From: a candidate division WOR-3 bacterium
Lineage (GTDB): Bacteria; Hydrothermota; Tepidihabitantia; SM23-42
Direction: 5' to 3'
Length of the DNA: 64,000 nucleotides
Assembly: GCA_020343595.1 (NCBI GenBank)
Contig: CP070802.1
Location: 13,377-77,376, forward strand
Position 1 is the stretch's first letter. Every line of letters begins with the position of its first letter. The notes under the pieces are model-generated. The model worked only from the letters and a program-made list of their open reading frames with translations. It made no database searches and was not told the DNA's origin. Below are positions 1 through 64,000 of this stretch, piece after piece. The position numbers and the translations under genes were made by a program.

Positions 1-316
1 CGGGGATGAGACAAGCCAGTATGGCAAGTATCCTCGGTATTCTTTTTTTCTCGAGGATGTCTACGATTGGTGCGAGTATGTATGCAAGGCCCATTCCAAT
101 GATGAAAGGAACGAGGATCGTGAAATAGCTGAACAGTAAAGATAGTAGCAACAGAAGTATGCTCATGAGAAATATCGGCCTCACGCTGCTCTTTTTTCGC
201 TGTGGCCAGAGCATTGCCAGGACGATGAGGAGCAGCCAGAGTGGGGAGAAAGTCTGCGAGATGATCACGAACGCGGCGATAAAGACAAATGCGAGGTAAA
301 GGAATACATTATGCAT
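1..316 (-). CDS. AI-2E (PerM-like) family transporter, N-terminal part; runs off the window edge
   Basis: Manual translation from ATG at 316: MHNVFLYLAF...PFIIGMGLAYILAPIVDILEKKRIPRILAIL. Hydrophobic, with the LAYxLxPxVxxLE motif of this family. Absent from the ORF track because it has no stop in the window. Confidence 0.75.
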   Translation of the reverse strand, partial: MHNVFLYLAFVFIAAFVIISQTFSPLWLLLIVLAMLWPQRKKSSVRPIFLMSILLLLLSLLFSYFTILVPFIIGMGLAYILAPIVDILEKKRIPRILAILACLIP

Positions 317-322
317 GGTGTG

Positions 323-350
323 ATTATATATGACCGGGCTGCGAAATCAA
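323..350 (-). promoter_or_regulatory. sigma70-type promoter, leaderless
   Basis: TTGATT-16nt-TATAAT, then 6 nt to ATG at 316. Confidence 0.65.
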
Positions 351-353
351 GGC

Positions 354-381
354 TTGACTTTTGGGTGCGTATATATAGAAT
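354..381 (+). promoter_or_regulatory. sigma70-type promoter with SD-led start
   Basis: TTGACT-16nt-TAGAAT; AAGGAG before ATG at 399. Confidence 0.65.
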
Positions 382-398
382 AGCAAAAAGGAGACGGT

Positions 399-1688
399 AT
401 GCATCATCTGAAATACATGGTAGTTCCACTTTTTTTATTCGTTGTTGGATGTTCCTTTGAAGACCAAACGCTTCTAAGTATTGGTGAGACCAAATACTCG
501 GTTGCAGATTTTAATGAAAGATATCAGTTCACTGCAGCCGATGATTCTGTCAGAAGGATGAATCTGATCGATGAATATGTGAACCAGATGCTGGCAGTTG
601 AAGAGGCCAAAGATCAGGGCTACGATAGTGATCCGGTTGTGCAGGCAGCCTTTGGGACGAATGAACGGGATGTTATCTGGCGTTCTTACTACAGTGACGT
701 GATTCTTGGTAAAGTCAAAGTCACAGATGGTGAGGTAAGAGATACTTACAACAAGATCGTCGAGCAGTATCACCTTGCACAGATCGTGGTATCAGAGGAG
801 TCCCTTGCGAACTACGTAAGCAATGAGCTTAAGAAAGGTGCATCGTTTGAGGACATGCTGACGTTTTCGCTCGACACAATGTCAGTCGATGGTGATATCG
901 GCACTTTTTCGATAATGTCAATACCGCCAGAGATCATGACCTCCTTGAAGAAGGTGAAAGAGGGCGGCGTGACCGAGCCCATACAATTCGGCGAATACTA
1001 TATGATCTTCAAGGTCATTGACCACTCAATTGCCGAAAGCCCAAAATTTGACGAGGTGAAGGAAAACATTAGAAATAACTTGCGACAAGAGAAGGCAAGG
1101 GCCGAAGGTGAGAAGTATTTCAGCAAATTGATGGAGAGGGCAAGGGTTGAGTATAACCAGGAAGGATTAGATATTCTGCTAAAACCGGAATCGCTGATTA
1201 CGGAGAGTGACCTCAATACCTGGGTGGTGAAGAAGTATGATACGGCATTCGTTTATGTCCGTTCGGTCATAGACGCGGTGCGATATCTCCATACGGGCTC
1301 GCGTGTCGATCCGAAATACTTGATCGATCAAGAACTGATCCCCGATCTGATCTATGACGAAGCGATAAGCAAGTACCACCATAAACAGAAGGTGACCAAA
1401 AGGAAATTGGATAATACCTATACCATGCTACTCTATCAGAAGTATTATTCAGATAATGTGACGGGTAAAGTGACAGTTGATTCGGCAGCGGTCAGGGAGT
1501 ACCTCAAAGAACACCGCGATGAGTTTAAGGATATGGATGCAAAGAGGGCTCATTCAATAGTAACCGTGAGGCTGAGAGAGGGAATGGTCCAGAATTTGCG
1601 GAACGATCTCTTCAGCATGTTACGCGAAAAATACAACCCCGAGGTCAATGAGGCAGTCTTGTCTCGGTTGTTGAAGGAGGAAAAGTGA
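399..1688 (+). CDS. PpiC/parvulin-type peptidyl-prolyl isomerase-like lipoprotein (SurA/PrsA-like)
   Basis: Lipobox (FVVGC); YHLAQIVVSEESLA...KKGASFEDM...GDIGTF...GGVTEPIQFGEYYMIFKV rotamase-like segment. Confidence 0.75.
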   Translation: MHHLKYMVVPLFLFVVGCSFEDQTLLSIGETKYSVADFNERYQFTAADDSVRRMNLIDEYVNQMLAVEEAKDQGYDSDPVVQAAFGTNERDVIWRSYYSDVILGKVKVTDGEVRDTYNKIVEQYHLAQIVVSEESLANYVSNELKKGASFEDMLTFSLDTMSVDGDIGTFSIMSIPPEIMTSLKKVKEGGVTEPIQFGEYYMIFKVIDHSIAESPKFDEVKENIRNNLRQEKARAEGEKYFSKLMERARVEYNQEGLDILLKPESLITESDLNTWVVKKYDTAFVYVRSVIDAVRYLHTGSRVDPKYLIDQELIPDLIYDEAISKYHHKQKVTKRKLDNTYTMLLYQKYYSDNVTGKVTVDSAAVREYLKEHRDEFKDMDAKRAHSIVTVRLREGMVQNLRNDLFSMLREKYNPEVNEAVLSRLLKEEK

Positions 1689-3918: not shown

Positions 3919-3946
3919 TTGACACGCATGGACGTATGGTTAGAAT
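3919..3946 (+). promoter_or_regulatory. sigma70-type promoter, leaderless
   Basis: TTGACA-16nt-TAGAAT, 6 nt to GTG at 3953, no SD. Confidence 0.75.
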
Positions 3947-3952
3947 TGTGAT

Positions 3953-5311
3953 GTGGACAAACTGGCAGCATATATAGCAAAAGACGCGCATATCCAGAGT
4001 ATTGTTTCACTGAAAGGCGATCTGGACCTGTACATTGTGGGCGGAACGGTCCGGGATATTCTGCTTGACCGACAACCAGAGGATTATGACTTTTCGTTGG
4101 AAGGGTCAGGCATAGACTTCGCCAGGCATGTTGCGCGGAGAACGGGTGGGGCATTTGTCGTTCTTGATGAGAAAGCGGATGAAGCCCGGGTGGTCGTTGA
4201 TGATATTATCTATGATTTCGTGGGCGTTGACCAGGGCGGTGTCGCTTCGGATCTTACGAGGCGTGATTTTACGATAAACGCGATGGCAGTACACGCCGAT
4301 CGGCTTGAGCTGATCGATCCCTGCCACGGATTGCGTGATCTGAAGAAACGAGTGATCCGTCCCGCCTCGGCCGATGCGTTGATCGCTGATCCGCTACGGA
4401 TATTGAGGGGATTCAGATTCTCACTGCAACTCGATTTCGACCTGCACCGGGATTTTACCAAATTCGCCAGGAACATTTCTCTGGAAGATGTTGCTGCGGA
4501 GCGGATCGGGGAGGAATTGTTACGTATCATGTCAACGCCGCGTTCGTTTGATGTGATACTGAAGATCAACCAGTTAGGAGTGTTCAAGCAGATATTCAAG
4601 GAAGCGCAAAAGCTCATCGAGGATTTCGATCTCTGGAATCATTCACTCAACACCTACGGAGCCGTTGAGTACCTGATCGAACACGGGTTCTTCACCCAGC
4701 TTGAGCCTGAATACAACACTTACTTTGCAGAGAGGAATCGGATTGCGCTCTGCAAACTGGCGGGCCTGTTCCATGACGTGGCTAAACCGGATACATTTCT
4801 CATAAAGGATGGTGAAATTCATTTCTACGGACATGATTCAATTGGTGCAAAGATGATCGAGAAGATCGCACACCGCCGTTTGAGGTTCTCTCGGCATGAT
4901 ACCGAAGTTCTGAAGAAATTAGTAAAGGAACATATGCGGTTGCATCTGCTGGCAACCAATCCTGATCTCACCGATCGCGCGATTCGCCGTTTTTTTCGTC
5001 ACCTTGGATTCGATTGGTTTGGAGCCATGATCATCGCGTGGGCTGACGGGTATGCGACCGGTGGTAGGACAAATCATCTCGAGAAGGCATTTCTGAGGAT
5101 GGTTGAATTATACCGTGCCGATATGGCAAAACCGAAGGTCGAGCGACTCGTGAACGGCTATGACCTCATCGCCTTGGGTATGAAACCCGGTCCGAACTTT
5201 AAATTCATACTCCAAGAACTGTTGGACATGCAACTGGAAGGTATCATAAAGGAGAAGGCTGAAGGCCTTGAACAAGCCAAGAAGATCGCAGAGAAGATTA
5301 ACTCGGATTGA
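3953..5311 (+). CDS. Class II tRNA nucleotidyltransferase with HD domain (probably CC-adding type)
   Basis: VGGTVRD...DYDF, DLTRRDFTINAMA, ADPLRILRGFRF, FHDVAKP motifs. Confidence 0.85.
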   Translation: MDKLAAYIAKDAHIQSIVSLKGDLDLYIVGGTVRDILLDRQPEDYDFSLEGSGIDFARHVARRTGGAFVVLDEKADEARVVVDDIIYDFVGVDQGGVASDLTRRDFTINAMAVHADRLELIDPCHGLRDLKKRVIRPASADALIADPLRILRGFRFSLQLDFDLHRDFTKFARNISLEDVAAERIGEELLRIMSTPRSFDVILKINQLGVFKQIFKEAQKLIEDFDLWNHSLNTYGAVEYLIEHGFFTQLEPEYNTYFAERNRIALCKLAGLFHDVAKPDTFLIKDGEIHFYGHDSIGAKMIEKIAHRRLRFSRHDTEVLKKLVKEHMRLHLLATNPDLTDRAIRRFFRHLGFDWFGAMIIAWADGYATGGRTNHLEKAFLRMVELYRADMAKPKVERLVNGYDLIALGMKPGPNFKFILQELLDMQLEGIIKEKAEGLEQAKKIAEKINSD

Positions 5312-5358: not shown

Positions 5359-5386
5359 TTGACACTATGGGATGAATGAGTATAAT
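5359..5386 (+). promoter_or_regulatory. sigma70-type promoter of hslV
   Basis: TTGACA-16nt-TATAAT, 9 nt to ATG at 5396. Confidence 0.75.
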
Positions 5387-5395
5387 ATCATCAGT

Positions 5396-5920
<525 letters not shown>

Positions 5921-11819: not shown

Positions 11820-12248
11820 TTACAATTCAATTAATTTGGGCGACTGCGCACTATGGGGATGTTTCGAATCCGTGTATATCTTCAGTCGCCTCAACCGGCG
11901 CGCTCTCAATTTGTTCTTGGGCAACATGCCGCTGATCGCATGATAGAAAACGCGTTCCGGATGTTTTTTCAGCATCAATTCTAAATGGATCTTCTTCAAG
12001 CCGCCCGGGTAGAAAGAATGAGAATAGTATATCTTATCCTTCATTTTGTTTCCGGTGACCCGGAATTTATCGGCATTGATGACGACCACAAAATCCCCGC
12101 AATCGACGTGTGGGGAGTACTGTGGTTTGTTCTTGCCAATAAGAACACGGGCAATCTTCGAAGCCAAACGACCGAGGATCTTATCAGTGGCGTCGACGAC
12201 GTACCAATTGCGCTTGATTTCCGCTTTCTTCAAAACTTTTGTCTTCAT
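11820..12248 (-). CDS. rplM: 50S ribosomal protein L13
   Basis: WYVVDA, LGRLAS, PHVDCGDFVVVINA, YPGGLK, GMLPKN. Confidence 0.97.
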   Translation of the reverse strand: MKTKVLKKAEIKRNWYVVDATDKILGRLASKIARVLIGKNKPQYSPHVDCGDFVVVINADKFRVTGNKMKDKIYYSHSFYPGGLKKIHLELMLKKHPERVFYHAISGMLPKNKLRARRLRRLKIYTDSKHPHSAQSPKLIEL

Positions 12249-12256
12249 TAGCGACT

Positions 12257-12284
12257 ATTATATACAATTTTGGGGCAATGTCAA
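12257..12284 (-). promoter_or_regulatory. sigma70-type promoter of rplM, near-leaderless
   Basis: TTGACA-16nt-TATAAT, 8 nt to ATG at 12248, no SD. Confidence 0.75.
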
Positions 12285-12544: not shown

Positions 12545-14995
12545 TCAGTGTGCTTCTTCCCAGTCGTTACCAATGCCGATCGTAACTGTGATTGGAACCT
12601 TTGTTTCTATGGCAGTTTCCATGCTCTTTCTTATCAACTCTTTGGCTTCATCGACCCGTGCAGTTTCGATTTCGAATAGCAGTTCGTCATGGATCGATAA
12701 AAGCAGACCGCGTTTGAAGTGAGCCCCATTGAGATACTTCTCGACATCAATCATCGCGATCTTGATGAGGTCGGCAGCGCTGCCCTGGATCGGCGTGTTG
12801 ATGGCAGCTCGTTTTGAGAATTCTCGGAGGTTGTAATTACGTGAGTGCAGATCGGGTAATGGTCTGCGGCGTTTGAAAATGGTCTCTGCGTATCCTTTTT
12901 CCTGTGCTGATTCCACCACCTGTTCACGCCATGCCGCAACGCCAGGATAGAGGTCATAATATGACTGGACGAATTGTGCTGCCTCTTCGTGGGGGATATC
13001 AAAGCGCTGGGCCAGACCATAGTCACTCATGCCGTAGATGAGCCCGTAATTGATGACCTTGGCCATTCTGCGCTGTTTGTCATCGACTTTCTCTTCGGGG
13101 ATGCCGAGGACCACACTCGCCGTGTGCCGGTGTATGTCATCCCCTTGCATGAACGCCTGGATGAGGTTCTTATCGTCGGCAATATGGGCGAGCAACCTCA
13201 GTTCGATCTGAGAGTAATCGGCCGAGATCAGGGTGTAGCCTTCGCTTGCGACAAAGCCCTTTCTGATCCTTCTGCCGAGTTCGCTGCGGATGGGTATGTT
13301 CTGAATGTTCGGATTCGATGAAGACAGTCTGCCGGTCGCCGTACCGGTCTGGTTGAATGTCGTGTGGATACGGCCTTCTTGACTTAACATGATCAAGGGC
13401 TCGATGTAGGTCGATCTCAATTTTGCCAGTTCGCGGAACCTGAGGATTTCCCTGGGCACCGCATGACTGAGGCTGAGTTGGGTCAACACTTCAACATCTG
13501 TCGAGTAATGCTTCTTACCGCGTTTCGTCGGCTTGAGTTTCAGTTCTTCAAACAGGACCTCGGCGAGCTGCTTGGGTGAGTTGATATTGAAAGAATGCCC
13601 GACGATGCGATAGATATTTTTTTCGACTTCCTGAAGATCTTTTTGAACTTCTACGTTGAGTTCTTCCATGTATATTACATCAAGAGCGATACCTCGTTTT
13701 TCCATCCTGGTCAATACATGGATGAGCGGTTCCTCGATCTTATCGTAGAGCTCGAGCATATTCTGCTTCTGTAATTTTGTCTTGAGAAGAGGATGCAACT
13801 GATGGCTGAGGAGGGCGATCGCTTCCGGTGTTTTTCCCGGGCATGATTTCAGGTTTTGAAGGCAGATGTCGTCGAACGAGTGTGAGCGGCGATTCGGATC
13901 GAGAAGCCAGGAGGCGATTTGGACGTCGAACAGCGGCGGGTTCAGAGTAATTTCACGCGCCTTGGTCTTCAGGTCAAAACCTGCCTTGATGATCCCTTCC
14001 CTGGCTAGGATATCAGCGGCATCTTCACGCCCTGCGCAGTATACGTTGTCATTGTCAACGCTAAAGAATGCGTTGTCGTTATCGAAGGCAACGCCGAGTA
14101 CTTGTGCGCGCGTGACCTTATCCATGTCCTTCAATAGCTTGGTTTCAATAACACTATGAACGTCCTTGGAGAGTTCCTTTATGTATGCGTGGAATTCGAG
14201 ATCGACGAGTATTGGCATGACCTTATCGAGGTCAGGTTTTTTGGCGCGCAGATCATCAAGGGAGAAGTCCAGCGGAACATCTGTCTTCAGTTCGATCAAT
14301 TGACGCGACATTAAAGCCTGTTCCTTGTGTCCGGTAAGTCGCGGGTCTTTTCCGAGTGCATCACTGAAGTCGGCGTATTTTTCTATGATCTCCCGGGCAC
14401 GTTTTGGACCGATGCCTGGGACGCCGGGTACGTTATCGATGGTGTCCCCGGTTAATGCAAGATACATCGGGATCTGTTCGGGCAGGACACCGTATTTCTC
14501 AGAAACCTTAGCGCGGTCGATTATTTCGTCACGGTAGGCATCGTAGACAAAGACGTTGTCGCCAACAAGTTGCAGTAGGTCTTTGTCCGATGTTGCGATG
14601 TAGACCTCGCCGTGCTTCTTTAATTTTACGGCAAGGGTCGCCAGGATGTCGTCGGCTTCAAAACCCTGGACCTCGAACTGCGGTACGCCCATGCAAGCCG
14701 ACAATTCTTTTGCCTTTTCGATCTGGTAGGGAATGTCGGGTGGCGGTGGAGGCCGGGTCGCCTTGTAGTCCTCGAATATCTCATCACGGAATGTAACGCC
14801 CGGAGCATCGAATGCAAGAATCAGGTATTCGGTTGGCAGGCGCTTCTTTATCTTCTCCAGCGTATTAACGAAACCGAAGATGCCGGATGTGTTTCGGCCC
14901 CGGGAGTTCTTCAAAGGATTCTTTATGAACGCGAAATACGACCGGAAGATGATCGAATGCGCATCGATGATAACGAATTTCTTCTTCCTGCCCAT
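12545..14995 (-). CDS. polA: DNA polymerase I
   Basis: 5'-3' exonuclease N-domain (IIDAHS, YKATR, EADD), SADYSQIELR, AKVINYGLIYG, IHDELLFE. The 3'-5' exonuclease region is short and degenerate. Confidence 0.96.
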   Translation of the reverse strand: MGRKKKFVIIDAHSIIFRSYFAFIKNPLKNSRGRNTSGIFGFVNTLEKIKKRLPTEYLILAFDAPGVTFRDEIFEDYKATRPPPPPDIPYQIEKAKELSACMGVPQFEVQGFEADDILATLAVKLKKHGEVYIATSDKDLLQLVGDNVFVYDAYRDEIIDRAKVSEKYGVLPEQIPMYLALTGDTIDNVPGVPGIGPKRAREIIEKYADFSDALGKDPRLTGHKEQALMSRQLIELKTDVPLDFSLDDLRAKKPDLDKVMPILVDLEFHAYIKELSKDVHSVIETKLLKDMDKVTRAQVLGVAFDNDNAFFSVDNDNVYCAGREDAADILAREGIIKAGFDLKTKAREITLNPPLFDVQIASWLLDPNRRSHSFDDICLQNLKSCPGKTPEAIALLSHQLHPLLKTKLQKQNMLELYDKIEEPLIHVLTRMEKRGIALDVIYMEELNVEVQKDLQEVEKNIYRIVGHSFNINSPKQLAEVLFEELKLKPTKRGKKHYSTDVEVLTQLSLSHAVPREILRFRELAKLRSTYIEPLIMLSQEGRIHTTFNQTGTATGRLSSSNPNIQNIPIRSELGRRIRKGFVASEGYTLISADYSQIELRLLAHIADDKNLIQAFMQGDDIHRHTASVVLGIPEEKVDDKQRRMAKVINYGLIYGMSDYGLAQRFDIPHEEAAQFVQSYYDLYPGVAAWREQVVESAQEKGYAETIFKRRRPLPDLHSRNYNLREFSKRAAINTPIQGSAADLIKIAMIDVEKYLNGAHFKRGLLLSIHDELLFEIETARVDEAKELIRKSMETAIETKVPITVTIGIGNDWEEAH

Positions 14996-15000
14996 GGTCA

Positions 15001-15028
15001 ATTATATTCAAGAATGGTTTTCAAGCAA
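15001..15028 (-). promoter_or_regulatory. sigma70-type promoter of polA, leaderless
   Basis: TTGCTT-16nt-TATAAT, 5 nt to ATG at 14995. Confidence 0.65.
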
Positions 15029-15041: not shown

Positions 15042-15069
15042 TTGACAAGGGTTATTAATTCTGTAGTAT
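15042..15069 (+). promoter_or_regulatory. sigma70-type promoter, leaderless
   Basis: TTGACA-16nt-TAGTAT, 6 nt to GTG at 15076. Confidence 0.7.
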
Positions 15070-15075
15070 TGCACA

Positions 15076-48071: not shown

Positions 48072-48108
48072 CCTTACTCCCTTCAGATTGAATGTCAACG
48101 GTAAACGT

Positions 48109-48147: not shown

Positions 48148-48175
48148 TTGACAAATACAGGAAATGCGATATGAT
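48148..48175 (+). promoter_or_regulatory. sigma70-type promoter, leaderless
   Basis: TTGACA-16nt-TATGAT, 5 nt to ATG at 48181. Confidence 0.75.
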
Positions 48176-48180
48176 TAAGT

Positions 48181-50202
48181 ATGGATCAGAGGCTCATACT
48201 GGAGCTGATGACAGAATTGGCACATGGTCTCGATGCTGCTCGATCCTACCCGCTCGAACATCCGGAAGTCAAAAGCACCGTATCAAACGCTGTGTCTGCA
48301 CTCGAGAGCATATTCTCGGCCAGCAATGAATTTACCGTGCGCTTCTCTGGCCGAGCGCTCATCGTGGACGACGCGCGTGTGGGAACCGATGATAACCAGA
48401 AGTTGGTCTCGCTGCTTGACGAATTGAGTGGAAAGGGCGTAACTGGCATGAGATTTACCGCCGGCGTTGTCAGCAATGATGTCGTCAACTTGTATTCGGT
48501 GCTTGCCGGTGATCTCTCTGAGATCAAAAAATATGGCGATTTCTCTGAGGCACTGACGGCCAGGAGAGTACAGAACATATCCTTGGAGGTTGGCAAGACA
48601 TCCTCTCCTGAGAATGCCAGAGGAAGGAGTAGTCCCCACGAAGAGATCATAAAAGCGATACGTGGTTTGGTCAAGATCGCCCGCGAACGTGCTGCCATTT
48701 CAGAAGCCAAGATACCCTTCACCGAGATCATGAATCGTATAGAACATGTGTCGAGCGCGGACTGGCATCCGTACCGGGAAGCCATGGCGAGCGTCGTAGA
48801 ACTTTTGCCGGTTGAAAAAAGAGTTGCACTTCTTCAGGATATCGAGATCAGACCATTCGCGCGTTCGCTCCTGGCAAGAATGGGGGGCGAAACAATGGTC
48901 GAGCTCATGACCAACTGGCAGCGACAGGGAAAGAGAGAGCACGTAACGCGCGCCATTGGTGCCGTAGAGAAAGAACGACTGCGGGAGATTATTCCTGAAT
49001 TGAAGAACCGTCAATTGAGTGTCTACCAGTATCTAAGCCTTGCCGGTATCGATGTACTAACGGAAGATGCCGTTTCCTGTACGATTGATGAGTCTGATAT
49101 TGAAACAGTGCTACACCTCTATGACGAGATGATCGAAGCGCAGAATGCAGAGCTGCACACGAATGCCCTTTGTTCGATGATTGTATTTGCGGATCGCCTG
49201 GGCCGAGAGAAGAAGTATGATATGGCCAGTGACGTGATCACCCGCATCTCGGCCGCCATCGAACAGGAGCCTTCCGATGCCGTCATCGCGGGTATCCTTG
49301 CCGATCTGGAGTTGCTGTATGCAGTAGTATCTGCACAGGGACAAACAGATTCATGCGAGATATTGATAGAACCCTTTGGTAGAATACTCGGTCGCAGCAC
49401 GATTTCACTGGGGACCCGGCGTCGGATAATACAGTATTTGAGTAAGACCGGCAATCCGTCTGTGCTCCACCTGCTCTTCTCACTATTGTGGGAGAGCGGT
49501 TTGTATCCCGATGTCCGCGCTGCGATAATCGGCTTCGGAGGAAAGGCCGTCAGCGAGGCAATACAACTGCTGCGCGACGCCGAGGATTTCTCGGTGCGCA
49601 TGAAACTGATCGACGTGCTCAAGAATATCGGCAATGAGAGCCTGGAGATCCTGGCCGATAATCTCGGCAGCCGGGAATGGTTTCTCCGTCGTAATATCGT
49701 GCGGATCTTCGGTGAAATTGGCGATTCAAGCGTGATCCCCAGACTGGAGGAAATGCTCCAGGATGAGGATCATCGGGTCCGTATTGAAGTTGTCCGTACG
49801 TACGGAAAATTCAACTATAAAGATGGTCTGATGATGGCGCTGAAAGATGGTTCACTCCACGTGAAGGCGGAAGCACTGCGATCACTAAGGCGTATGCTTG
49901 ACGCCGAGGAAGTGATCGATCTGCTTTCTCAGCTCGGTACGTCGGGTGATGAGGTATATGTTGAATTGTTAAAGATCGTTGACGAGAAGAGGGTCTTCGA
50001 GGCCGTGCCCTGGATAGGGGAAATGATGAACCGCATTGAATGGAGGAAAGACGCGCCCGCTATTGAGATCAAGCGCCTCGCCATCAATACTCTAGCAAAA
50101 CTGGGGGGCGATGACGCGAAGATGATTCTGTTGCATCTGAGCAATGGCGAGGACAGAAGGATTTCAGAACTTGCTTCAAGTATGCTTAAGCGAATTAGCT
50201 GA
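48181..50202 (+). CDS. HEAT-repeat protein
   Basis: N-terminal SYPLEHP motif; C-terminal HEAT repeats (WFLRRNIVRIFGEIG, HRVRIEVV). Confidence 0.85.
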   Translation: MDQRLILELMTELAHGLDAARSYPLEHPEVKSTVSNAVSALESIFSASNEFTVRFSGRALIVDDARVGTDDNQKLVSLLDELSGKGVTGMRFTAGVVSNDVVNLYSVLAGDLSEIKKYGDFSEALTARRVQNISLEVGKTSSPENARGRSSPHEEIIKAIRGLVKIARERAAISEAKIPFTEIMNRIEHVSSADWHPYREAMASVVELLPVEKRVALLQDIEIRPFARSLLARMGGETMVELMTNWQRQGKREHVTRAIGAVEKERLREIIPELKNRQLSVYQYLSLAGIDVLTEDAVSCTIDESDIETVLHLYDEMIEAQNAELHTNALCSMIVFADRLGREKKYDMASDVITRISAAIEQEPSDAVIAGILADLELLYAVVSAQGQTDSCEILIEPFGRILGRSTISLGTRRRIIQYLSKTGNPSVLHLLFSLLWESGLYPDVRAAIIGFGGKAVSEAIQLLRDAEDFSVRMKLIDVLKNIGNESLEILADNLGSREWFLRRNIVRIFGEIGDSSVIPRLEEMLQDEDHRVRIEVVRTYGKFNYKDGLMMALKDGSLHVKAEALRSLRRMLDAEEVIDLLSQLGTSGDEVYVELLKIVDEKRVFEAVPWIGEMMNRIEWRKDAPAIEIKRLAINTLAKLGGDDAKMILLHLSNGEDRRISELASSMLKRIS

Positions 50203-54634: not shown

Positions 54635-55339
54635 TCAGGGCGAGTTCTTTCCGTAGTACTTCAGTGCTATACTCCCGTTTTCTATAGTAGCATAGGAAAA
54701 GTGTCTGACCCAGTCTCCAGTGTTAACGTAGTATTTGTCGCGGGCCAACTTCTTGAAGACAGGATTATGTGAGTGAGCCAGCATCACTATGTCGACGTCA
54801 TTGAGCATCCGTGATGCGTAGCTCTCGAGCATATGGTCGAGTTCCCTGCTGGGTTCCTGTTTTCGAGAGAACCTGGCAACGGACTGGGCAAGTGAAATAC
54901 CGAGGTCCGGATGGATGAGACGGAATAGCTTGTGATTGAGCCTGGAGGTGAGCAGTCTATCCCATAGTGAAGTCCATAGGCGCTTGTCGATTGTGTTTCC
55001 ATGAGCGAGCAGGACGCGCTTGCCGTCGATTTCAAAAACGTTTGGCCCCCGGTGAACCGTGAACCCGAAATTTTTGAGAAAATCTCCTATTGATATCTCA
55101 TGGTTGCCCAGTATGTAGTGAATGTTCTTACCTTCGTTCAGGATGCTGTAGAGAACAGCGAGAAGTCTGAAATAGTCCTTTGGAAAGACCAGATGATACT
55201 CAAACCAGATCTCGAAGAGGTCACCTAAGATGTATAGCTCGGTGAGATCCGGCCGTATTTCACGGAGGAAGTTCAGAAGCATTCTGCAGCGTTCGCTGCT
55301 GTCATTGCGTATGTGAGCGTCGCTTATGAAAACATGCAC
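54635..55339 (-). CDS. lpxH: UDP-2,3-diacylglucosamine diphosphatase (LpxH-like)
   Basis: FISDAH, LGDLFEIW, GNHE, AHG, AHSH, NTGDW. Confidence 0.82.
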   Translation of the reverse strand: MHVFISDAHIRNDSSERCRMLLNFLREIRPDLTELYILGDLFEIWFEYHLVFPKDYFRLLAVLYSILNEGKNIHYILGNHEISIGDFLKNFGFTVHRGPNVFEIDGKRVLLAHGNTIDKRLWTSLWDRLLTSRLNHKLFRLIHPDLGISLAQSVARFSRKQEPSRELDHMLESYASRMLNDVDIVMLAHSHNPVFKKLARDKYYVNTGDWVRHFSYATIENGSIALKYYGKNSP

Positions 55340-55367
55340 TCATTCCTCCGTTTCACCGTCATTCCTT

Positions 55368-55395
55368 AATATAGTATGAATCCAGCCCGTGTCAA
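55368..55395 (-). promoter_or_regulatory. sigma70-type promoter
   Basis: TTGACA-16nt-TATATT; GGAGG before GTG at 55339. Confidence 0.6.
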
Positions 55396-55556: not shown

Positions 55557-55584
55557 TTGACACCTCTGGGGCTCTGAGTATAAT
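55557..55584 (+). promoter_or_regulatory. sigma70-type promoter, leaderless
   Basis: TTGACA-16nt-TATAAT, 6 nt to ATG at 55591. Confidence 0.8.
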
Positions 55585-55590
55585 AATCTC

Positions 55591-58401
55591 ATGAATAGTT
55601 TAATGATGTTGGGCTTGATCATCTTTTCACAGTACTTCGGTCAAAATAAGATCCAGTATAAAGACTTCGACTTCCGTGTTCTCGAAACCGAGCATTTCAA
55701 TATCTATTTCTATCAGGGATGCGATGAACTGGCGGCTTTCGCCGAGACCGTTCTTGAGGATGGCTACGCAATGCTCAGTGATGATTTGGGCATGGAGATC
55801 GATTTTACCATACCAGCGATAATATACAATTCACCGAACGATTTTTCACAGACGAATATCACGCTCGAACTCATCGAAGAGGCTACCGGTGGATTTTCAG
55901 AGATACTGAAGAACCGGATGGTCGTTCCTTTCACCGGGGACTATGAGGAGTTCCGGCATGTTTTGGTGCATGAGTTGACTCATATCTTCCAATTCGCGAT
56001 ATTCTTTCCGTCGCGGCTCGAAGCGATTTTCAGTGGCGACATACTCTATTCAATACCGCTATGGGTATTCGAAGGTCATTGTGAATTCATGTCGCAGGGT
56101 TGGGATGTTGGCGCGGACATATTCGTTCGAGACCTTGTAATCAACAACAAGCTCATTCCGATCTACGCACTCGGAGGATATGGAGGATTGATCGTCTACA
56201 AGGAGGGTCAGGCATTCTACAAGTACGTGGCCGAGAAATACGGGCGCGAAAAGGTCGGCGAGTTCCTTCATCTGATGAAGATGAAGCGAAATCTGGAACC
56301 GGCGTTCATGGCCGCCTTCGGTGTTACTCCCGAGGAATTTGATAAGCGCTGGCTCAGGTATTACCAGATGCAGTACTGGCCCGAGGTTGACGAAATGGAC
56401 TACTTTGATAACTTCGGCCGGATAATATACGATCACAAGAAAACCAATTCGATCTATAATGTTTCGCCTGCGATATCGCCGAACGGGGATAAGATCGCCT
56501 TCATCAGTGATCAGGGTGGGATTGCGCAGCTCCTCGTTGTTTCGAGCATCGACGGTCGACTCATCGGGAAACTGGTGAAGTCAGCATATTCTGCAGGTTA
56601 TGAGGGACTGCATCTGTATCATGGCGGGTTGTCATGGTCGCGTGACGGCGAATATATTACATTCGCAGCGAAATCCCGCGGTGATGATGTGCTGTACGTT
56701 GTGAGCGCCGCAGACGGTAAGGCATACAGGCGCATGAAGTTCGACCTCACAGGGATCTATTCACCAAGATTCAGCCCCGATGGTAAGCGCATAATATTCA
56801 CCGGCTTGAGGGATTCTTATTCAGATATCTACGTATGCGATATCGAAACGGGCATCCTTGAGAACATCACCAATGACATATATTCGGAGAGTTTTCCAGA
56901 CATACTGTCTGATGATCTGATCACCTTCATCTCCGACCGCCCGGATTCGAATGAAGACTACTACTACGGTCAGCATGGTCTATTTCTTTATGAACACGGA
57001 GAAATAAGCAGGATCTCCCCGCGATCGAAATACCTTGCATCCGCGACATTCGCTCCTGACGGCAGTATCTATTTTGTGGCCGACTACGATTCTGCCTATA
57101 ACCTCTACTATTATTCAAAGGAAGAGGGGAAAGTAAGCAAGAGGACCGACGTATTCAGCGGTATTTACTATCCTTCGATCTCTGCCGATGGCAACAAAAT
57201 GGCATTTTCTTATTATAATGACTACGGCTACGACGTTTGCATTGTCAAGGACGCCTTGACCAAGATGCTTGACTACACGGCGGTCGACAGTGTCAAGATT
57301 GCGCAGATTGATTACTACACCCCGGAACCGCTCGATGACGATGCTATTAAGAAATACAAACCGAGATTCACTTTCGATTATTTCTCGGCAAGCGCAGAAT
57401 ACTTCTCGGTACTTGGCTTTTCGGGCGTGACGCAGATCGGAGTGAGCGATATACTGGGTAACCATCATTTTCAGTTCGCCTCCAATTTCTACGGCAGCAT
57501 TCTGAGTTCGGATATATTCGTTAATTACTGGTATTTGAAGAAGCGGACCGATTTCGGTTTCGGCGTGTTTCAGTACCTGAATTATTTCTCGGATGGGTAT
57601 GATCTGCTGGTGTGGCGCTATCTCGGCCTTGGTGGCGGTATCCAATACCCGTTCGACCGGTTTTTCAGACTGGAATTGGGCATGTATGCCTACAAATTAT
57701 ACGAAACGCGGTGGTTAAACTATTTTCCGTTATACAGTTCAAACTGGTCGCAGACAGCGGATTACAATTTCTTCTATCCCGAGGTAGCGCTTGTGTTCGA
57801 TAACATCAAGTACGGACCGCTGGGGCCGCATGACGGAAGACGTTTCAGGATCGGTGGTTATGCTACAATATTCAGCAACAAGGACCTGAAGAGTGCGGTC
57901 CTTGACTACCGCAGATATTTCGCCCTTTCGCCGCGCGCGAGTTTTGCGTCGCGCCTTGTCCTTGCCGGCAGTTTCGGTGAAGATCTTGATTACTGGTCGA
58001 TCGGCGGGCCGTATTCTCTGCGGGGCTATGACTACTATGCATTCACCGGGAGCAAAATAGGTTTCATGAATCTCGAATTTCGTTTTCCGTTCATCGACCG
58101 TCTCAGTATTGCCTTCCCGATCCCGCTGGAAATTCGGAATATCCGTGCAGATATCTTTGCGGATTTCGGCGCCGTGCACACCGATTCGTTTAAATTCTAT
58201 GAAACCGATGGAGGATTCAGGCTGAAGGACCTTAAGCTTGGTGTTGGAGCGGGGTTGAGATTTACTTTCATGTATATCATATTCAGGTTGGATTTTGCAC
58301 GAGCCCATAACTTAAAGGGTTGGTACGAGTACTACAATTCGCCCACGGATTTCCAGCGTTCGGAGTGGAAGTTCTATTTGACCCTCAGTCCGGACTGGTG
58401 A
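55591..58401 (+). CDS. Outer-membrane protein: gluzincin (peptidase MA-like) domain, TolB/PD40 propeller and Omp85 (BamA/TamA-like) barrel
   Basis: YFGQNKIQY, HELTH...WVFEG..E, SPNGDKIAF/SPDGKRIIF repeats, IGGPYSLRGY, GVGAGLR, terminal aromatic (SPDW). Confidence 0.85.
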   Translation: MNSLMMLGLIIFSQYFGQNKIQYKDFDFRVLETEHFNIYFYQGCDELAAFAETVLEDGYAMLSDDLGMEIDFTIPAIIYNSPNDFSQTNITLELIEEATGGFSEILKNRMVVPFTGDYEEFRHVLVHELTHIFQFAIFFPSRLEAIFSGDILYSIPLWVFEGHCEFMSQGWDVGADIFVRDLVINNKLIPIYALGGYGGLIVYKEGQAFYKYVAEKYGREKVGEFLHLMKMKRNLEPAFMAAFGVTPEEFDKRWLRYYQMQYWPEVDEMDYFDNFGRIIYDHKKTNSIYNVSPAISPNGDKIAFISDQGGIAQLLVVSSIDGRLIGKLVKSAYSAGYEGLHLYHGGLSWSRDGEYITFAAKSRGDDVLYVVSAADGKAYRRMKFDLTGIYSPRFSPDGKRIIFTGLRDSYSDIYVCDIETGILENITNDIYSESFPDILSDDLITFISDRPDSNEDYYYGQHGLFLYEHGEISRISPRSKYLASATFAPDGSIYFVADYDSAYNLYYYSKEEGKVSKRTDVFSGIYYPSISADGNKMAFSYYNDYGYDVCIVKDALTKMLDYTAVDSVKIAQIDYYTPEPLDDDAIKKYKPRFTFDYFSASAEYFSVLGFSGVTQIGVSDILGNHHFQFASNFYGSILSSDIFVNYWYLKKRTDFGFGVFQYLNYFSDGYDLLVWRYLGLGGGIQYPFDRFFRLELGMYAYKLYETRWLNYFPLYSSNWSQTADYNFFYPEVALVFDNIKYGPLGPHDGRRFRIGGYATIFSNKDLKSAVLDYRRYFALSPRASFASRLVLAGSFGEDLDYWSIGGPYSLRGYDYYAFTGSKIGFMNLEFRFPFIDRLSIAFPIPLEIRNIRADIFADFGAVHTDSFKFYETDGGFRLKDLKLGVGAGLRFTFMYIIFRLDFARAHNLKGWYEYYNSPTDFQRSEWKFYLTLSPDW

Positions 58402-59653: not shown

Positions 59654-62407
59654 TTATTCTGTCAACAGGATGACCTTACGGGTCGTTACCTCGTTCCCAT
59701 AACTGGCTCTCACGAAATAGACACCAGAACTGATCCGCCGTTCCATGTTGTCTTTTCCATTCCAGACTATCTCATATTCACCCGCGCTGAAATCCCTGTC
59801 GACAATGTTGCTAACGAGTCTTCCCGCAATATCATAAACACTGATTGATAGTGCGCCACTGTGCGGCACTGAGAAGCTGATCCTCAAGTCCCTTACGAAT
59901 GGATTCGGACTTGGCGCCGGAAGCATGAATCGGTCGACTGACTTGTTGTCCCAGGATTCGATGCCAACCTCGCTCACCGTCATGACTCTCATCATGAAGT
60001 CATAGGTTGTCCAGGCATGCCAGCCCGGGTCACTTGGGTCGGTCCAGTACCAATATGAGAGATAGTCCAATGGTTGTGTGTTGTCCATGCCGATATAAGG
60101 TGCAGTCGGTGAGCCGGACAGCCAATGTACTACCATCCAGAATGGGTCTCCGGTCGTCACCTGTATCGGTGGTGTATATTCCTTGATCGCCCAACCGGGA
60201 CCCGCGCCGTTGATCGTGTCCGGAGCGGCAATGTAATATGATGGATCGAGCCCGGGTAAACTAGTAGAGTCTTTATGAAGTGAAACGGCTATCATCGAAT
60301 CATTACTGCAGTAGAACCGTACCTGCGTGATGTAGTATGGTGGCGAGAGGCAGGGCATCATTTTTTCCGCAAACTTGTTATCGGCGAAGGTTGTGGAAAC
60401 GTATCCGTAGGTATCAAGGAATCCATCATCATACATGATTTCTGTCGTAACATCGAAAGCAGTCGCCATGGTATCGTTTGACGGCACATAATCATCCGGT
60501 ACATCGGTGAAGAAATATGCGTCGTATAACCCGGTATCACTAGGACTCCAGCTAGGTGCGACAGTCACGACCTGTGATTCAAATGGATTAAGATAAGACT
60601 GGCCATTGCCGCTGTAGACAAGCGTACCAATGTCGTCGTATATCTCACAATTGACCGGGATTTGCTCGGTATAGCTGCCGTGGTTTGCCACGGTCACCCG
60701 GGGTGCACCCGTGTAATTCAGAGTGATTTCTGAAAATGGATATGAAATGCTCAACACGGTGCCGTCATGGTAGCAGATACTGGTCTGCGTCAACGTATCA
60801 TTCTGCGGGAATTCGTCACCCGACAGCGTAGTGAAAGCAGTAGTCAGGTACCGACCGTATGCGGGTACGTTCCAGTTTGGTGTGAAGCTGACCGTTGTGC
60901 TTGAACCGGATGCGAGCCCGCTGATTGCGGCGGTGTCGCCGTAGAGGGGCTGCGCAAGTGAGTCGTGGATGTAGCACACGACGCTGAAGCTGGCTGGTTG
61001 CGCGCCGTAGTTACGGGCGATCGCCTGAGGCGTAATATTCTGTCCAACCTGGAGGAACGCGGCTGGTGCGTTGATCCTTTCGATCCCGACATCATTGGTC
61101 AGTGGGTCGAGCATGCGTATGGCGTAGACCTCACCGCCGCTTCCGAATTGGCGGGCGTGAACGGCTTTGCCGCCGGCCGTTATGAACGAACCGTCTTTGG
61201 ATATATCCACGGAAAAGATCGATCCCGGTTCATCGATATCATCCAGCAACTGGAAGATCGGCGTAGATGAGTTGCGGTCGAACACGGTCAGCACGTCACC
61301 AAAGGTAGCGTTGTATTGACCCCAGGAACCGGCAACGGCACGTGCACCATCCTCGCTCAGTGCGCAGGTGGGTACGTAATCACCGTACTGTGTATACTCC
61401 CAGAGGGGTGTTGCTGATGAGGAATCGAAGAGCAATACTTTACCAGTATTGCTCGGGCTGTACTGGAAGGTGCCGGCCATGATCGTCGAACCATCGTCTG
61501 ATATCGCCACCGATGTGACCCACGGATGTCCGGTCGGATGCTGCCATACCTGGTCATAGTCTGAGCCGTTCCATCGGTAAAGGTATACGCGGGTGTAGAA
61601 GTCCCCCTTGACGAGGTACTTGCCATCGGCTGAGATCTTTGCCGGCGTCTGGCCGTATTGCATGATCGAATCACGGCGCGAACCATCGGCGTTGAATACG
61701 TATATCGCGTCATACGTGGAAACACAGATCACCGAAGCATCATTGGCCATGTCGACGCCGTAGATACCGCGGGTCGGATTGAAACCGACCGTTCTGATCG
61801 TATCCCCGGCGGCATCGAAGAGAAAGAGGCGGCCCTGACCGGCCTGACCGGCGAGCGCGGCATAGACCGATCCGTCATCGGCAACGCTAATTGTAGGCCC
61901 CTGGGCACTCGATGAGAAGTTGAAACCCGTTGGAGGACTGTATACCCAGTTAGGCGCGGCACTCGCGGAAGAGAAACTATAGCATGCTTCACCGTCTGCG
62001 AGGACACCGATCCCGGCACCGTACATCGAAACATCGGTTGATATGAACCAGTCGGCTCCGGACATGGGGAATGTCCACATCGGTGTGTTCGTTCCGAGAG
62101 TCCGGTACAGACTCGTTCTTTCGTTGTTCAGGTACCATCCTGCCTGTATCCACATGCCATTTCCGGCGATCGCCGTGTGCTGGGCGATGGCATTCTGGTG
62201 ATTGCGATCAACCCATATTACCTCGGCGCGGTGGTTTCCACAGAAATCAGTTGCGGTCTTCAGCCCAGGGGTGTCGCCGGATGGCTCGGTGACGAATCTG
62301 GTTCCGTCCGCACTCGTTTCAATTTCTATTCCTGGTACATCGGCCGGCTTTGTGATCCCGGCGGCCAGGATATTTACTGCCATCAACAAACAGAGTAAGT
62401 ATTTCAT
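59654..62407 (-). CDS. Large secreted protein: WD40-like propeller, CARDB/Ig-like repeats and FlgD/T9SS-type C-terminal domain
   Basis: Signal peptide; repeats ISADG/SVAISDDG; NDVGIERINAP, DEFPQNDT, DYVPSNDT; SPNPF...IYDIAGRLV...WNGKD...SGVYFVR. Confidence 0.85.
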   Translation of the reverse strand: MKYLLCLLMAVNILAAGITKPADVPGIEIETSADGTRFVTEPSGDTPGLKTATDFCGNHRAEVIWVDRNHQNAIAQHTAIAGNGMWIQAGWYLNNERTSLYRTLGTNTPMWTFPMSGADWFISTDVSMYGAGIGVLADGEACYSFSSASAAPNWVYSPPTGFNFSSSAQGPTISVADDGSVYAALAGQAGQGRLFLFDAAGDTIRTVGFNPTRGIYGVDMANDASVICVSTYDAIYVFNADGSRRDSIMQYGQTPAKISADGKYLVKGDFYTRVYLYRWNGSDYDQVWQHPTGHPWVTSVAISDDGSTIMAGTFQYSPSNTGKVLLFDSSSATPLWEYTQYGDYVPTCALSEDGARAVAGSWGQYNATFGDVLTVFDRNSSTPIFQLLDDIDEPGSIFSVDISKDGSFITAGGKAVHARQFGSGGEVYAIRMLDPLTNDVGIERINAPAAFLQVGQNITPQAIARNYGAQPASFSVVCYIHDSLAQPLYGDTAAISGLASGSSTTVSFTPNWNVPAYGRYLTTAFTTLSGDEFPQNDTLTQTSICYHDGTVLSISYPFSEITLNYTGAPRVTVANHGSYTEQIPVNCEIYDDIGTLVYSGNGQSYLNPFESQVVTVAPSWSPSDTGLYDAYFFTDVPDDYVPSNDTMATAFDVTTEIMYDDGFLDTYGYVSTTFADNKFAEKMMPCLSPPYYITQVRFYCSNDSMIAVSLHKDSTSLPGLDPSYYIAAPDTINGAGPGWAIKEYTPPIQVTTGDPFWMVVHWLSGSPTAPYIGMDNTQPLDYLSYWYWTDPSDPGWHAWTTYDFMMRVMTVSEVGIESWDNKSVDRFMLPAPSPNPFVRDLRISFSVPHSGALSISVYDIAGRLVSNIVDRDFSAGEYEIVWNGKDNMERRISSGVYFVRASYGNEVTTRKVILLTE

Positions 62408-62423
62408 TGCTCCTCCCTGGGTT

Positions 62424-62451
62424 ATTATAGTCAGCGGGTCGGCTGAGTCAA
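62424..62451 (-). promoter_or_regulatory. sigma70-type promoter with SD-led start
   Basis: TTGACT-16nt-TATAAT; GGGAGGAG before ATG at 62407. Confidence 0.7.
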
Positions 62452-62453
62452 TC

Positions 62454-62481
62454 TTGATTTTAGATAGCCACGCAGTATAAT
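62454..62481 (+). promoter_or_regulatory. sigma70-type promoter, leaderless
   Basis: TTGATT-16nt-TATAAT, 5 nt to GTG at 62487. Confidence 0.7.
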
Positions 62482-62486
62482 TTGAT

Positions 62487-64000
62487 GTGGTACTACTGAT
62501 ACTGTTGCTCGGTCAGTCCTTCACCGCTTACTTCGATTCAAGCTTGGCATTTATCGGTCTCACAAGGGCAGATCTGACTTTCCGCAGCGATTACGTGAAA
62601 AGTGACGATTATCGTTTTGATATAATCGATTCACTACTCAAAGAGCCACTTGTGTCGTCGCAATTTGTGGAACGATTGCACGATGATTTCTGCGAGCATT
62701 CACCCGCTGATGCTTTTGTGTCGTTGACCGATATCTACAAATTTGAATTGACCGGGCAAAAGACCGATATCTTCTCGGCACTGGAACAGGCCAAAGAATT
62801 GCTTGAGGAGGCATTTCCGGCCGATGCACCTGAGATCATGGGTGTGCTGGAGGAACTCATTAGGTTTTCTCCTGAGCCGACCGGTTCGATCGCCGAGGAA
62901 AGAGCTCACGAGCGAGCATACGATTCTCTGACTTCTTTTCTACGCAGGCATGCGCGCCAGATCGATTGTGAGAATATCTTTCTGGCTGGTTATACCATTC
63001 TATCGGCACTTGAGGGATACTCGGTTGGTGATTTGAATCTACCCCTGTCAAGAACGCACGTGGAGGGTGTTTCGGGCGATATTCTATACTATGGAGAGTA
63101 TGATTTTGGCGAGTTCGTCATTGGTGATTTGGGCGCCAACATCTACGAGCGGGATTTCGCGATCATCATCGACATCGGTGGCAATGATACTTACCGGGTG
63201 CCTGGACATCACGGCTTTGTGCGGGTCATCATCGATGAATCCGGGGACGATTCATATCTGGGCGGCGAGTACAACGTAGCGTGCGGTAGATTCGGTGTTT
63301 CGATCGTCCTTGACCGGCAAGGGGATGACCTGTACCGGGCGCGGAGTTTCTCGATCGGTGCCGGTCTTTTCGGTGTTGGAGTTTTGATCGACGAATCAGG
63401 CGACGACCGATATCATGGCGATACGTTCACCCAGGGCGCTGGTTGTTTTGGAATTGGCATTCTCAGTGATCTTTCCGGCAACGACCATTACGAGGGTGCT
63501 CTATATGCCCAGGGTTTTGCTTCAACCTATGGGATCGGCATTCTCGGTGATGCCAATGGTAACGATCGTTATATCATCAGACCGGTATATCTTGATGAAA
63601 TAAGATATCTCGATCACTATCTCTCGATGTCGCAGGGGTTTGCGATTGGCTTCCGGCCGGATCTCCCGGCCGGTATCGGCTTGCTGTTTGAGGGTGGTGG
63701 TAATGACTATTACATCAGTGATATCTTCGGCCAGGGTGCGGCGTACTGGTACGGGATTGGTGCGATAGTAGAAAGGGGCGGCAATGATAACTACATAGGA
63801 TACCAGTATGTTCAAGGCAGCGGTACCCACATCGCACTTGGTCTGTTGATCGATGACCGCGGAGACGATAATTATGTTGCCAAGGGTGTAGCACAGGGCT
63901 GCGGCCATGATCTCTCCCTCGGTTTTTTGTACGACCGCTCAGGCGACGATACATATGCCTCATTCGACCTCAGCCAGGGTGCGGGTAATGCTAATGGTAT
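62487..64000 (+). CDS. Secreted protein with tandem D-x-x-G-[DN]-D-x-Y / QG-x-G repeats (partial, runs off the window)
   Basis: Manual translation is open from GTG 62487 to the window end: IIDIGGNDTY, IIDESGDDSY, LDRQGDDLY, IDESGDDRY...TQGAG, SDLSGNDHY...AQGFA. Absent from the ORF track. Confidence 0.85.
   Translation, partial: MVLLILLLGQSFTAYFDSSLAFIGLTRADLTFRSDYVKSDDYRFDIIDSLLKEPLVSSQFVERLHDDFCEHSPADAFVSLTDIYKFELTGQKTDIFSALEQAKELLEEAFPADAPEIMGVLEELIRFSPEPTGSIAEERAHERAYDSLTSFLRRHARQIDCENIFLAGYTILSALEGYSVGDLNLPLSRTHVEGVSGDILYYGEYDFGEFVIGDLGANIYERDFAIIIDIGGNDTYRVPGHHGFVRVIIDESGDDSYLGGEYNVACGRFGVSIVLDRQGDDLYRARSFSIGAGLFGVGVLIDESGDDRYHGDTFTQGAGCFGIGILSDLSGNDHYEGALYAQGFASTYGIGILGDANGNDRYIIRPVYLDEIRYLDHYLSMSQGFAIGFRPDLPAGIGLLFEGGGNDYYISDIFGQGAAYWYGIGAIVERGGNDNYIGYQYVQGSGTHIALGLLIDDRGDDNYVAKGVAQGCGHDLSLGFLYDRSGDDTYASFDLSQGAGNANG

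Follow-up and report, generated by a model that had tools for sequence, protein, structure and literature searches.

Genes expressed from messenger RNAs (mRNAs) that carry no 5′ leader are known from several bacterial groups. In Deinococcus radiodurans a −10 motif adjoins about one third of open reading frames (ORFs), and leaderless expression has been established by experiment (Zhong et al. 2025, PMC12340547, citing de Groot et al. 2014 on D. deserti). In D. deserti 167 of 262 genes with a mapped transcription start site, or ∼64%, are leaderless, a figure quoted in the GeneMarkS-2 survey of Lomsadze et al. (2018, PMC6028130); the same survey predicts a ‘group C’ of 1028 among 4769 bacteria, with 25–50% leaderless operons, and places bacteria of the Fibrobacteres–Chlorobi–Bacteroidetes (FCB) group mostly in group B, marked by initiation without a Shine-Dalgarno (SD) sequence, and not in group C. 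A TAtaaT-type leaderless signal is also present in medium-GC (guanine plus cytosine) genomes of Aquificae and Chloroflexi (Zheng et al. 2011, PMC3160421). Here we analyze a 64-kb stretch of contig CP070802.1 from a bacterium of candidate division WOR-3 (henceforth the window: the whole stretch of DNA studied), in which sigma-70-type promoters stand immediately ahead of the start codon of most transcription units, in a position that would probably yield leaderless mRNAs. A literature search found no paper linking WOR-3, or Caldifarciminota, its current phylum name at NCBI, to leaderless genes, promoters or SD sequences.

A first-pass annotation of this DNA had listed 20 genes in which a promoter pair ends 5–9 nt before a start codon that has no SD sequence. 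All of its coordinates hold. Inspection of 50 nt of upstream sequence shows that all 20 starts, eight of them on the minus strand, are preceded by a TTGACA-like −35 box and a TATAAT-like −10 box separated by exactly 16 nt, with the ATG or GTG following 5–9 nt after the second box (Table 1). The gap between the −10 box and the start is most often 5 nt (11 starts), then 6 nt (five), 7 nt (two), 8 nt (one: 12248, rplM) and 9 nt (one: 5396, hslV), so that 16 of the 20 show the gap of 5–6 nt that had been given as usual; the remark that many starts are GTG likewise stands, there being 13 ATG, seven GTG and no TTG. Mycobacteria also accept GTG as a leaderless start. Agreement with the promoter consensus is 10–12 of 12 positions in each of these units except that at 14995 (TTGCTT, 9 of 12). 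When all 26 promoters that open a unit in the window are aligned on the −10 box, TTG is found in 26 of 26, the A that follows in 25 and the C in 22, and T1, A2 and T6 of the −10 box in 26 each. The spacer is equally uniform (16 nt in 26/26). The canonical optimum for a sigma-70 spacer is 17 ± 1 nt. Among strong promoter matches a 16-nt spacer occurs in 26 of 33 from the window and in 23 of 28 from the related loci L001–L003, versus 22 of 77 from unrelated bacteria, in which 16, 17 and 18 nt are about equally common.

Genes were mapped by means of a coding-potential model based on dicodons, followed by curation, and units were delimited by strand changes and gaps. The map comprises ∼66 genes in 26 transcription units, each opening with one of the 26 promoters; since every unit has a near-consensus promoter, the units can be read straight from the sequence. 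Twenty of the 26 (77%; 95% confidence interval 56–91%) open with a leaderless-type start, which amounts to ∼30% of all genes, and at high stringency the earlier list of such starts is complete. The six other first genes (399, 22139, 41929, 48071, 55339 and 62407) had been described as possessing a leader with an SD sequence, and so they do: they share the promoter and the 16-nt spacer, the −10 box ends 15, 16, 17, 17, 28 or 37 nt before the start, and the leader includes a GGAG/AGGAGG-type SD. No SD match of at least 4 nt lies within 3–12 nt of any leaderless-type start (0/20). For matches of at least 5 nt the count is 0 of 20 versus 20 of the 45 other genes (p = 1.2e-4), and strong AGGAGG sites stand 4–7 nt ahead of many internal genes, which indicates that the organism does use SD sequences where there is a leader.

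Table 1. Promoters and first genes of the 26 transcription units in the window (layout: −35 box, spacer, −10 box, distance to start codon, start codon).
Type	Interval (strand)	Layout	Start	First gene and remarks
leaderless	314..350 (−)	TTGATT-N16-TATAAT-6 nt-ATG	316	membrane-protein-like ORF, runs off window; 5′-most start
leaderless	3919..3955 (+)	TTGACA-N16-TAGAAT-6 nt-GTG	3953	CCA-adding/poly(A) polymerase family
leaderless	5359..5398 (+)	TTGACA-N16-TATAAT-9 nt-ATG	5396	hslV-like proteasome subunit; corrects 5372
leaderless or 1–2 nt leader	12246..12284 (−)	TTGACA-N16-TATAAT-8 nt-ATG	12248	rplM
leaderless	14993..15028 (−)	TTGCTT-N16-TATAAT-5 nt-ATG	14995	polA; weak −35; corrects TTG start 15001
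leaderless	15042..15078 (+)	TTGACA-N16-TAGTAT-6 nt-GTG	15076	DAGK/YegS-family lipid kinase, divergent from polA
leaderless	22247..22282 (+)	TTGACA-N16-TAGATT-5 nt-GTG	22280	GHL10 glycosyl-hydrolase-like; corrects 22175
leaderless	23369..23406 (+)	TTGACA-N16-TAGAAT-7 nt-ATG	23404	folK (HPPK), leads six-gene unit
leaderless	27188..27223 (+)	TTGACA-N16-TATAAT-5 nt-GTG	27221	queF-like
leaderless	27624..27659 (+)	TTGACA-N16-TATAAT-5 nt-ATG	27657	TPR protein
leaderless	31334..31371 (−)	TTGACC-N16-TACAAT-7 nt-ATG	31336	SLT transglycosylase/TPR protein; corrects 31357
leaderless	31877..31913 (−)	TTGACA-N16-TATACT-6 nt-ATG	31879	ndk; Pfam NDK aligns from residue 3
leaderless	31955..31990 (+)	TTGACA-N16-TATAAT-5 nt-ATG	31988	SNase-domain protein
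leaderless	37301..37336 (−)	TTGACA-N16-TATAAT-5 nt-GTG	37303	leads six-gene unit; no orthologue among compared loci
leaderless	37679..37714 (−)	TTGACA-N16-TATACT-5 nt-ATG	37681	83-aa ORF; corrects TTG start 37714
leaderless	37918..37953 (+)	TTGACC-N16-TATACT-5 nt-GTG	37951	NUDIX hydrolase; ATG in L036
leaderless	41694..41729 (−)	TTGACC-N16-TATCAT-5 nt-ATG	41696	ddl, leads four-gene unit; corrects TTG start 41729
leaderless	48148..48183 (+)	TTGACA-N16-TATGAT-5 nt-ATG	48181	HEAT-repeat protein, leads four-gene unit
leaderless	55557..55593 (+)	TTGACA-N16-TATAAT-6 nt-ATG	55591	peptidase MA/PD40 protein
leaderless	62454..62489 (+)	TTGATT-N16-TATAAT-5 nt-GTG	62487	ORF runs off window
leadered	354..401 (+)	TTGACT-N16-TAGAAT-17 nt incl. 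AGGAG-ATG	399	PPIase/SurA-like operon
leadered	22137..22184 (−)	TTGACT-N16-TAGAAT-17 nt incl. AGGAGG-ATG	22139	band-7/HflK-like, leads eight-gene unit
leadered	41886..41931 (+)	TTGACA-N16-TATTAT-15 nt incl. AGGAGG-ATG	41929	
leadered	48069..48136 (−)	TTGAAA-N16-TATAAT-37 nt incl. GGGAG-ATG	48071	UDP-glucose dehydrogenase family
leadered	55337..55395 (−)	TTGACA-N16-TATATT-28 nt incl. GGAGG-GTG	55339	lpxH-like
leadered	62405..62451 (−)	TTGACT-N16-TATAAT-16 nt incl. GGAGG-ATG	62407	protein with C-terminal sorting domain of type IX secretion system (T9SS) type

The arrangement is far more frequent than expected by chance. On the two strands of the window there are 21 matches to TTGA-N18-TANNNT-N5-9-RTG, versus 1.13 ± 1.00 (maximum 4) in 100 dinucleotide-preserving shuffles; a scan against shuffled controls had been proposed genome-wide in the first-pass annotation, and over the 64 kb it bears the annotation out. 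A promoter of at least 10/12 ends 5–9 nt upstream of 21 of the 5997 ATG, GTG and TTG triplets, versus 2.5 ± 1.7 when sequences are simulated by a first-order Markov model. All but two of these 21 triplets are starts on the earlier list, whose twentieth, 14995, scores 9/12. Extra matches at 8507–8542 (+) and before the start at 48639 (−) lie inside genes of the opposite strand and were rejected, as they fit the chance expectation of 1–3. In an annotation-free scan, 20 of the 33 strong promoter matches are followed 5–9 nt on by the start codon of an ORF no shorter than 80 aa; loci of unrelated bacteria, 532 kb in total, have only 5 of 77 strong promoters so placed and show no peak in the distance (Fisher p = 3e-9).

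The proteins and genomes closest to the window are those of candidate division WOR-3. PolA is 81%, 73% and 72% identical to its counterparts in the complete metagenome-assembled WOR-3 genomes CP070686, CP070705 and CP070795, the next matches being at ∼40%; L13 is 84% identical to that of WOR_3 SM23_42 and 75% to that of WOR_3 SM23_60. The DNA of the window, which has a GC content of ∼49%, is found in metagenomes from sediment and from mangrove. No RNA genes, and thus no 16S rRNA gene, were found when the 64 kb were scanned with Rfam and for tRNAs.

For comparison we used nine related loci (L001–L003, L036–L040 and L044), of which L036 was the single related locus recovered by scanning metagenome contigs with the SLT protein. 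Fifteen of the 20 leaderless-type genes have orthologues, giving 41 comparisons, and nearly all of these, judged both visually and by script, keep a promoter of at least 9/12 at 5–9 nt before the same codon; L044, too, retains the geometry. In 23 orthologue pairs of identical promoter geometry there are no differences in the −35 box (0/138) and few in the −10 box (5/138), while 40% of spacer positions (149/368), 39% of gap positions (59/151) and 43% of positions in the upstream 10 nt (98/230) have diverged. The start codon itself is exchanged between ATG and GTG, with the distance kept, at 3953 (geometry kept in L001, L002 and L037), 14995 (TATAAT-5 nt-ATG/GTG in L001–L003, L037, L038 and L040), 15076, 22280 (ATG, GTG and ATG in L036, L001 and L002, respectively) and 37951. 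The promoters of 37681 and 37951 differ in sequence in L036, with unchanged geometry. The gap of hslV ranges from 5 to 9 nt across six relatives, whereas that of rplM is 8 nt in each of the eight relatives possessing the gene. Among strong promoters in eight relatives, 42 of 59 proximal starts lie at 5–9 nt and 17 at 10–50 nt, and eight WOR-3 loci totalling 170 kb contain TTGA-N18-TANNNT-N5-9-RTG 44 times, versus four times for 32 other loci totalling 532 kb. The comparisons thus reveal selection on the hexamers and on their distance from the start. In hexamers, constrained spacing, orientation into the gene and purifying selection the sites are as expected of sigma-70-type promoters, with a spacing of 16 nt and not the canonical 17.

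The most distant contigs that carry a DAGK orthologue (L041–L043, 44–46% identity) keep TTGACA-N16-TATAAT and mostly have SD leaders or gaps of 11–18 nt. Pervasive leaderless use is therefore indicated for the clade and not for the phylum, and a claim for the whole phylum is not supported. On two of these contigs, the GC-rich L041 (19139, −) and L042 (20199, −), secA has TTGACA-N16-TATAAT followed by a conserved 18-nt leader (…GTTGAGAC…) with no clear SD, a further type of short leader.

Several observations, all of them indirect, place translation initiation at the promoter-adjacent codon. Fourteen of the 20 leaderless-type starts are the 5′-most possible, with an in-frame stop 6–33 nt upstream, and the Pfam profiles of HslV, L13, PolA, DAGK, HPPK, NDK and NUDIX begin at residues 2–13. 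L13 homologues are called at 142 aa, matching the start, in 93 of 120 cases among the matches listed, and at 145–174 aa in the others; the hslV product is called at 174 aa in L037–L040. Within codons 2–11 of orthologues, first codon positions differ by 19%, second positions by 17% and third positions by 51%. As substitution is codon-periodic from codon 2, selection at the protein level begins directly after the proposed start. Six starts that the first-pass annotation regarded as over-extended are plausibly moved (to 5396, 14995, 22280, 31336, 37681 and 41696): orthologues start at the same codon for five, and the sixth, 41696, has no orthologue among the compared loci.

We consider it likely that these are sigma-70-type promoters placed so as to yield leaderless mRNAs that begin with the A or G of the start codon. 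RNA polymerase would initiate on this base, or 1–3 nt before it, and the resulting mRNA would have neither a 5′ leader nor an SD sequence; ribosome and initiator tRNA would recognize the 5′-terminal AUG or GUG directly, by the leaderless pathway of Actinobacteria, Deinococcus-Thermus and archaea, and downstream genes of the operon would rely on SD sites or translational coupling. All leaderless-type starts are ATG or GTG, and hence their first base is a purine, in keeping with what is expected at +1. That most first genes are leaderless, as the first-pass annotation had it, is supported by the statistics, the share of units (20/26), the absence of SD, the evidence from protein N termini, the conservation footprint and the relatives (42/59); its organism-wide form is an extrapolation from 64 kb.

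Several points weigh against this interpretation. Its basis is the window plus ∼190 kb from relatives, extrapolated to the organism, and not a genome. Searches for RNA runs recovered only three low-depth metatranscriptomes, all of relatives, available as contigs only and mapped to 40 kb of the window and to L001; these contigs are sparse, short and inside genes, and none reaches a leaderless start or its promoter. Those nearest a 5′ end stop 18–33 nt inside the coding sequence, which is compatible with leaderless mRNAs and proves nothing. Additional upstream promoters or read-through transcripts may also be present. Finally, a gap of 5 nt makes the A or G that opens the start codon the sixth base past the −10 box. 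E. coli RNA polymerase favours the seventh or eighth. A +1 of the E. coli type would truncate the start codons of gap-5 units, and the interpretation therefore requires a slightly shorter discriminator in this lineage; the earlier premise that +1 falls ∼6–8 nt past the −10 box is slightly generous for the modal gap, which needs initiation at the sixth base.

Among the competing explanations the one that survives best, though improbable, is that unrecognized upstream promoters give leadered mRNAs that are translated without SD in the manner of Bacteroidota, the start-adjacent pair being incidental or otherwise used. Such initiation is common in FCB-group bacteria (group B in PMC6028130), and FCB-like traits are present here, among them the T9SS-type sorting domain. 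It would leave the near-invariance of the hexamers across nine relatives, while the flanks change by ∼40%, without an obvious cause, and the SD-led units are driven by the very same motif. Divergent intergenic regions of 79–82 bp are, moreover, filled by two promoters and have no room for more, and the strong SD sites on internal genes imply that the organism is not of the non-SD type.

Slightly less probable still is an E. coli-like +1 at the seventh or eighth base, in which case gap-5 transcripts would have no intact start, the layout would reflect something else, for example promoter occlusion or attenuation, and productive mRNA would come from elsewhere. A 5-nt gap that is both the commonest (11/20) and conserved in relatives is hard to square with unproductive transcripts. 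A spacer of 16 nt, one less than the canonical 17, further suggests a generally more compact promoter; taking spacer and gap together, these promoters look ∼2 nt tighter than is standard in E. coli. What lends the idea some weight is that the modal gap lies under the 6–7 nt of D. radiodurans (PMC12340547) and the 6–8 nt of Mycobacterium tuberculosis (PMC6028130).

We give little credence to translation from a downstream in-frame codon, whereby the mRNAs would have ordinary leaders and the listed starts would be artefacts of ORF extension. The start codons were inferred from sequence only, and several ORFs do contain more in-frame ATG or GTG codons within 30 nt; no SD stands ahead of these downstream candidates, N-terminal residues are kept in orthologues, and codon periodicity from codon 2 together with domain alignments from residues 2–13 led us to reject them. 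That the motif is a dispersed repeat or the operator of a global regulator, as its unusual uniformity (TTG, T1, A2, T6 and the 16-nt spacer, all 26/26) might suggest, is scarcely credible and was rejected because the sites share only two hexamers, with unrelated spacers and flanks; their orientation is always into the gene and their sequence is the sigma-70 consensus.

The units show further features of arrangement. In four of the leadered first genes (399, 22139, 41929 and 62407) only 15–17 nt separate the −10 box from the start, and the predicted 5′ untranslated region of ∼9–12 nt has room for scarcely more than an SD; L036 and L001 keep the layout seen at 22139. Divergent pairs are found at 314–401, 14993–15078, 22137–22282, 31877–31990, 48069–48183 and 62405–62489, with very short intergenic regions (79–82 bp in three of the pairs) that are occupied by two back-to-back promoters. 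The −35 boxes of such back-to-back promoters lie 2–13 nt apart, for example AGTCAAtcTTGATT at 62446–62459. In six gap-5 units (14993–15028, 27188–27223, 27624–27659, 31955–31990, 48148–48183 and 62454–62489) the TAA of TATAAT is in frame with the start: a 5-nt gap puts this stop 9 nt upstream, so that the −10 box itself closes the reading frame, which may be incidental.

In the lpxH-like leader an ATG at 55362 (−), 5 nt past the −10 box, opens a 12-codon ORF (MTVKRRNECMFS, 55324–55362) whose frame differs from that of the gene and which extends across its SD and its GTG start (55339). This could be a leaderless upstream mini-ORF or the product of chance; the chance of a start-like triplet 5–9 nt past a −10 box is ∼20%. 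TTG starts occur on internal genes with a strong AGGAGG (11414, −; 20915, −) and never on leaderless-type starts (0/20), an absence that would fit leaderless mRNAs requiring both a purine as +1 base and strong codon–anticodon pairing.

Two further observations concern a sigma factor and secreted proteins. A sigma-70-family gene at 5976–6818 (−) encodes 280 aa with regions 1.2, 2 and 4, and its best matches are RpoS/RpoD-type models, all under cutoff. It is the last gene of the unit that rplM leads (rplM-rpsI-rpsB-tsf-pyrH-frr-?-htrA-sigma), and this synteny is kept in L037–L040 and L044. Large secreted proteins with C-terminal FlgD_ig and Por_Secre_tail (T9SS-type) domains are encoded at 59654–62407 (−) and on L038, L039 and L043, which points to an FCB-like secretion system in this lineage, although promoters and SD use are not Bacteroidota-like.

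Returning to leaderless mRNAs as the preferred reading, the broader proposition, to which we assign about even chances, is that this WOR-3 clade is an unrecognized, phylogenetically separate lineage in which leaderless expression is the default for about three quarters of units, driven by full-consensus promoters with a rigid 16-nt spacer and a 5-nt discriminator; these would imply a geometry of polymerase and sigma factor with +1 one base closer to the −10 box than is usual for the E. coli enzyme. If so, its leaderless share would equal or exceed that of Deinococcus and fall in the archaeal range, and a medium-GC, uncultured sediment lineage would join the short list with dominant leaderless mRNAs, beside Deinococcus-Thermus and Actinobacteria. 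The question concerned is whether initiation on leaderless mRNAs is an ancestral trait or one gained several times. A fixed spacer of 16 nt and a gap of 5 nt amount to a testable prediction on start-site selection by the polymerase of this lineage. For annotation, gene starts in metagenome-assembled genomes of the clade can be set precisely from the promoter, six having been moved in 64 kb. No new mechanism is revealed.

Several features are shared with Deinococcus-Thermus. There, too, about one third of ORFs (here 20 of ∼66) have a −10 box of TANNNT type only a few nt ahead of the start codon, with no SD at these genes and SD on others; the pattern exposes mis-annotated starts, and the ∼64% of leaderless genes in D. 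deserti is near the 77% of units here. However, most leaderless genes of D. radiodurans are without a classical −35 box and have only TANNNT as −10 box (PMC12340547), whereas in the window a full TTGACA stands at a fixed 16 nt from a full TATAAT. The gap is 6–7 bp there versus 5–6 here, GC content is high versus ∼49%, the phyla are unrelated, and function in D. radiodurans was tested by experiment whereas the WOR-3 case is known from sequence alone.

Group C of the GeneMarkS-2 survey (PMC6028130), composed mainly of Actinobacteria such as M. tuberculosis, likewise has a Pribnow box within a short, constant interval of the first gene of an operon and SD sequences on internal genes. The window has the peaked −10 distance, the absence of SD at first genes and the large operon share of that group, albeit in a sample and not a whole genome. 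The share differs, a predicted 25–50% of operons in group C versus ∼73–77% of sampled units here, and WOR-3 is not mentioned in the sections of the survey drawn on here.

Aquificae and Chloroflexi resemble the window in their full TATAAT-like −10 box, ∼10–12 bp upstream of the start, and in a GC content of 40–60%; they differ in that leaderless genes are widespread and not dominant, that no −35 box or spacer regularity is described, and that they are other phyla (PMC3160421). In archaea (group D of GeneMarkS-2; haloarchaea and Sulfolobus) a leaderless majority of first genes, 60–80% of operons, is again found, but the TATA box lies ∼26 nt upstream and the transcription and translation machinery is archaeal, so that the likeness is one of outcome only. 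The mechanism, presumably held in common with Deinococcus-Thermus and the group C bacteria, is already known; the WOR-3 case stands apart by its lineage, by a complete −35 box at a rigid 16 nt from the −10 box, by a shorter gap and by the high share of units.

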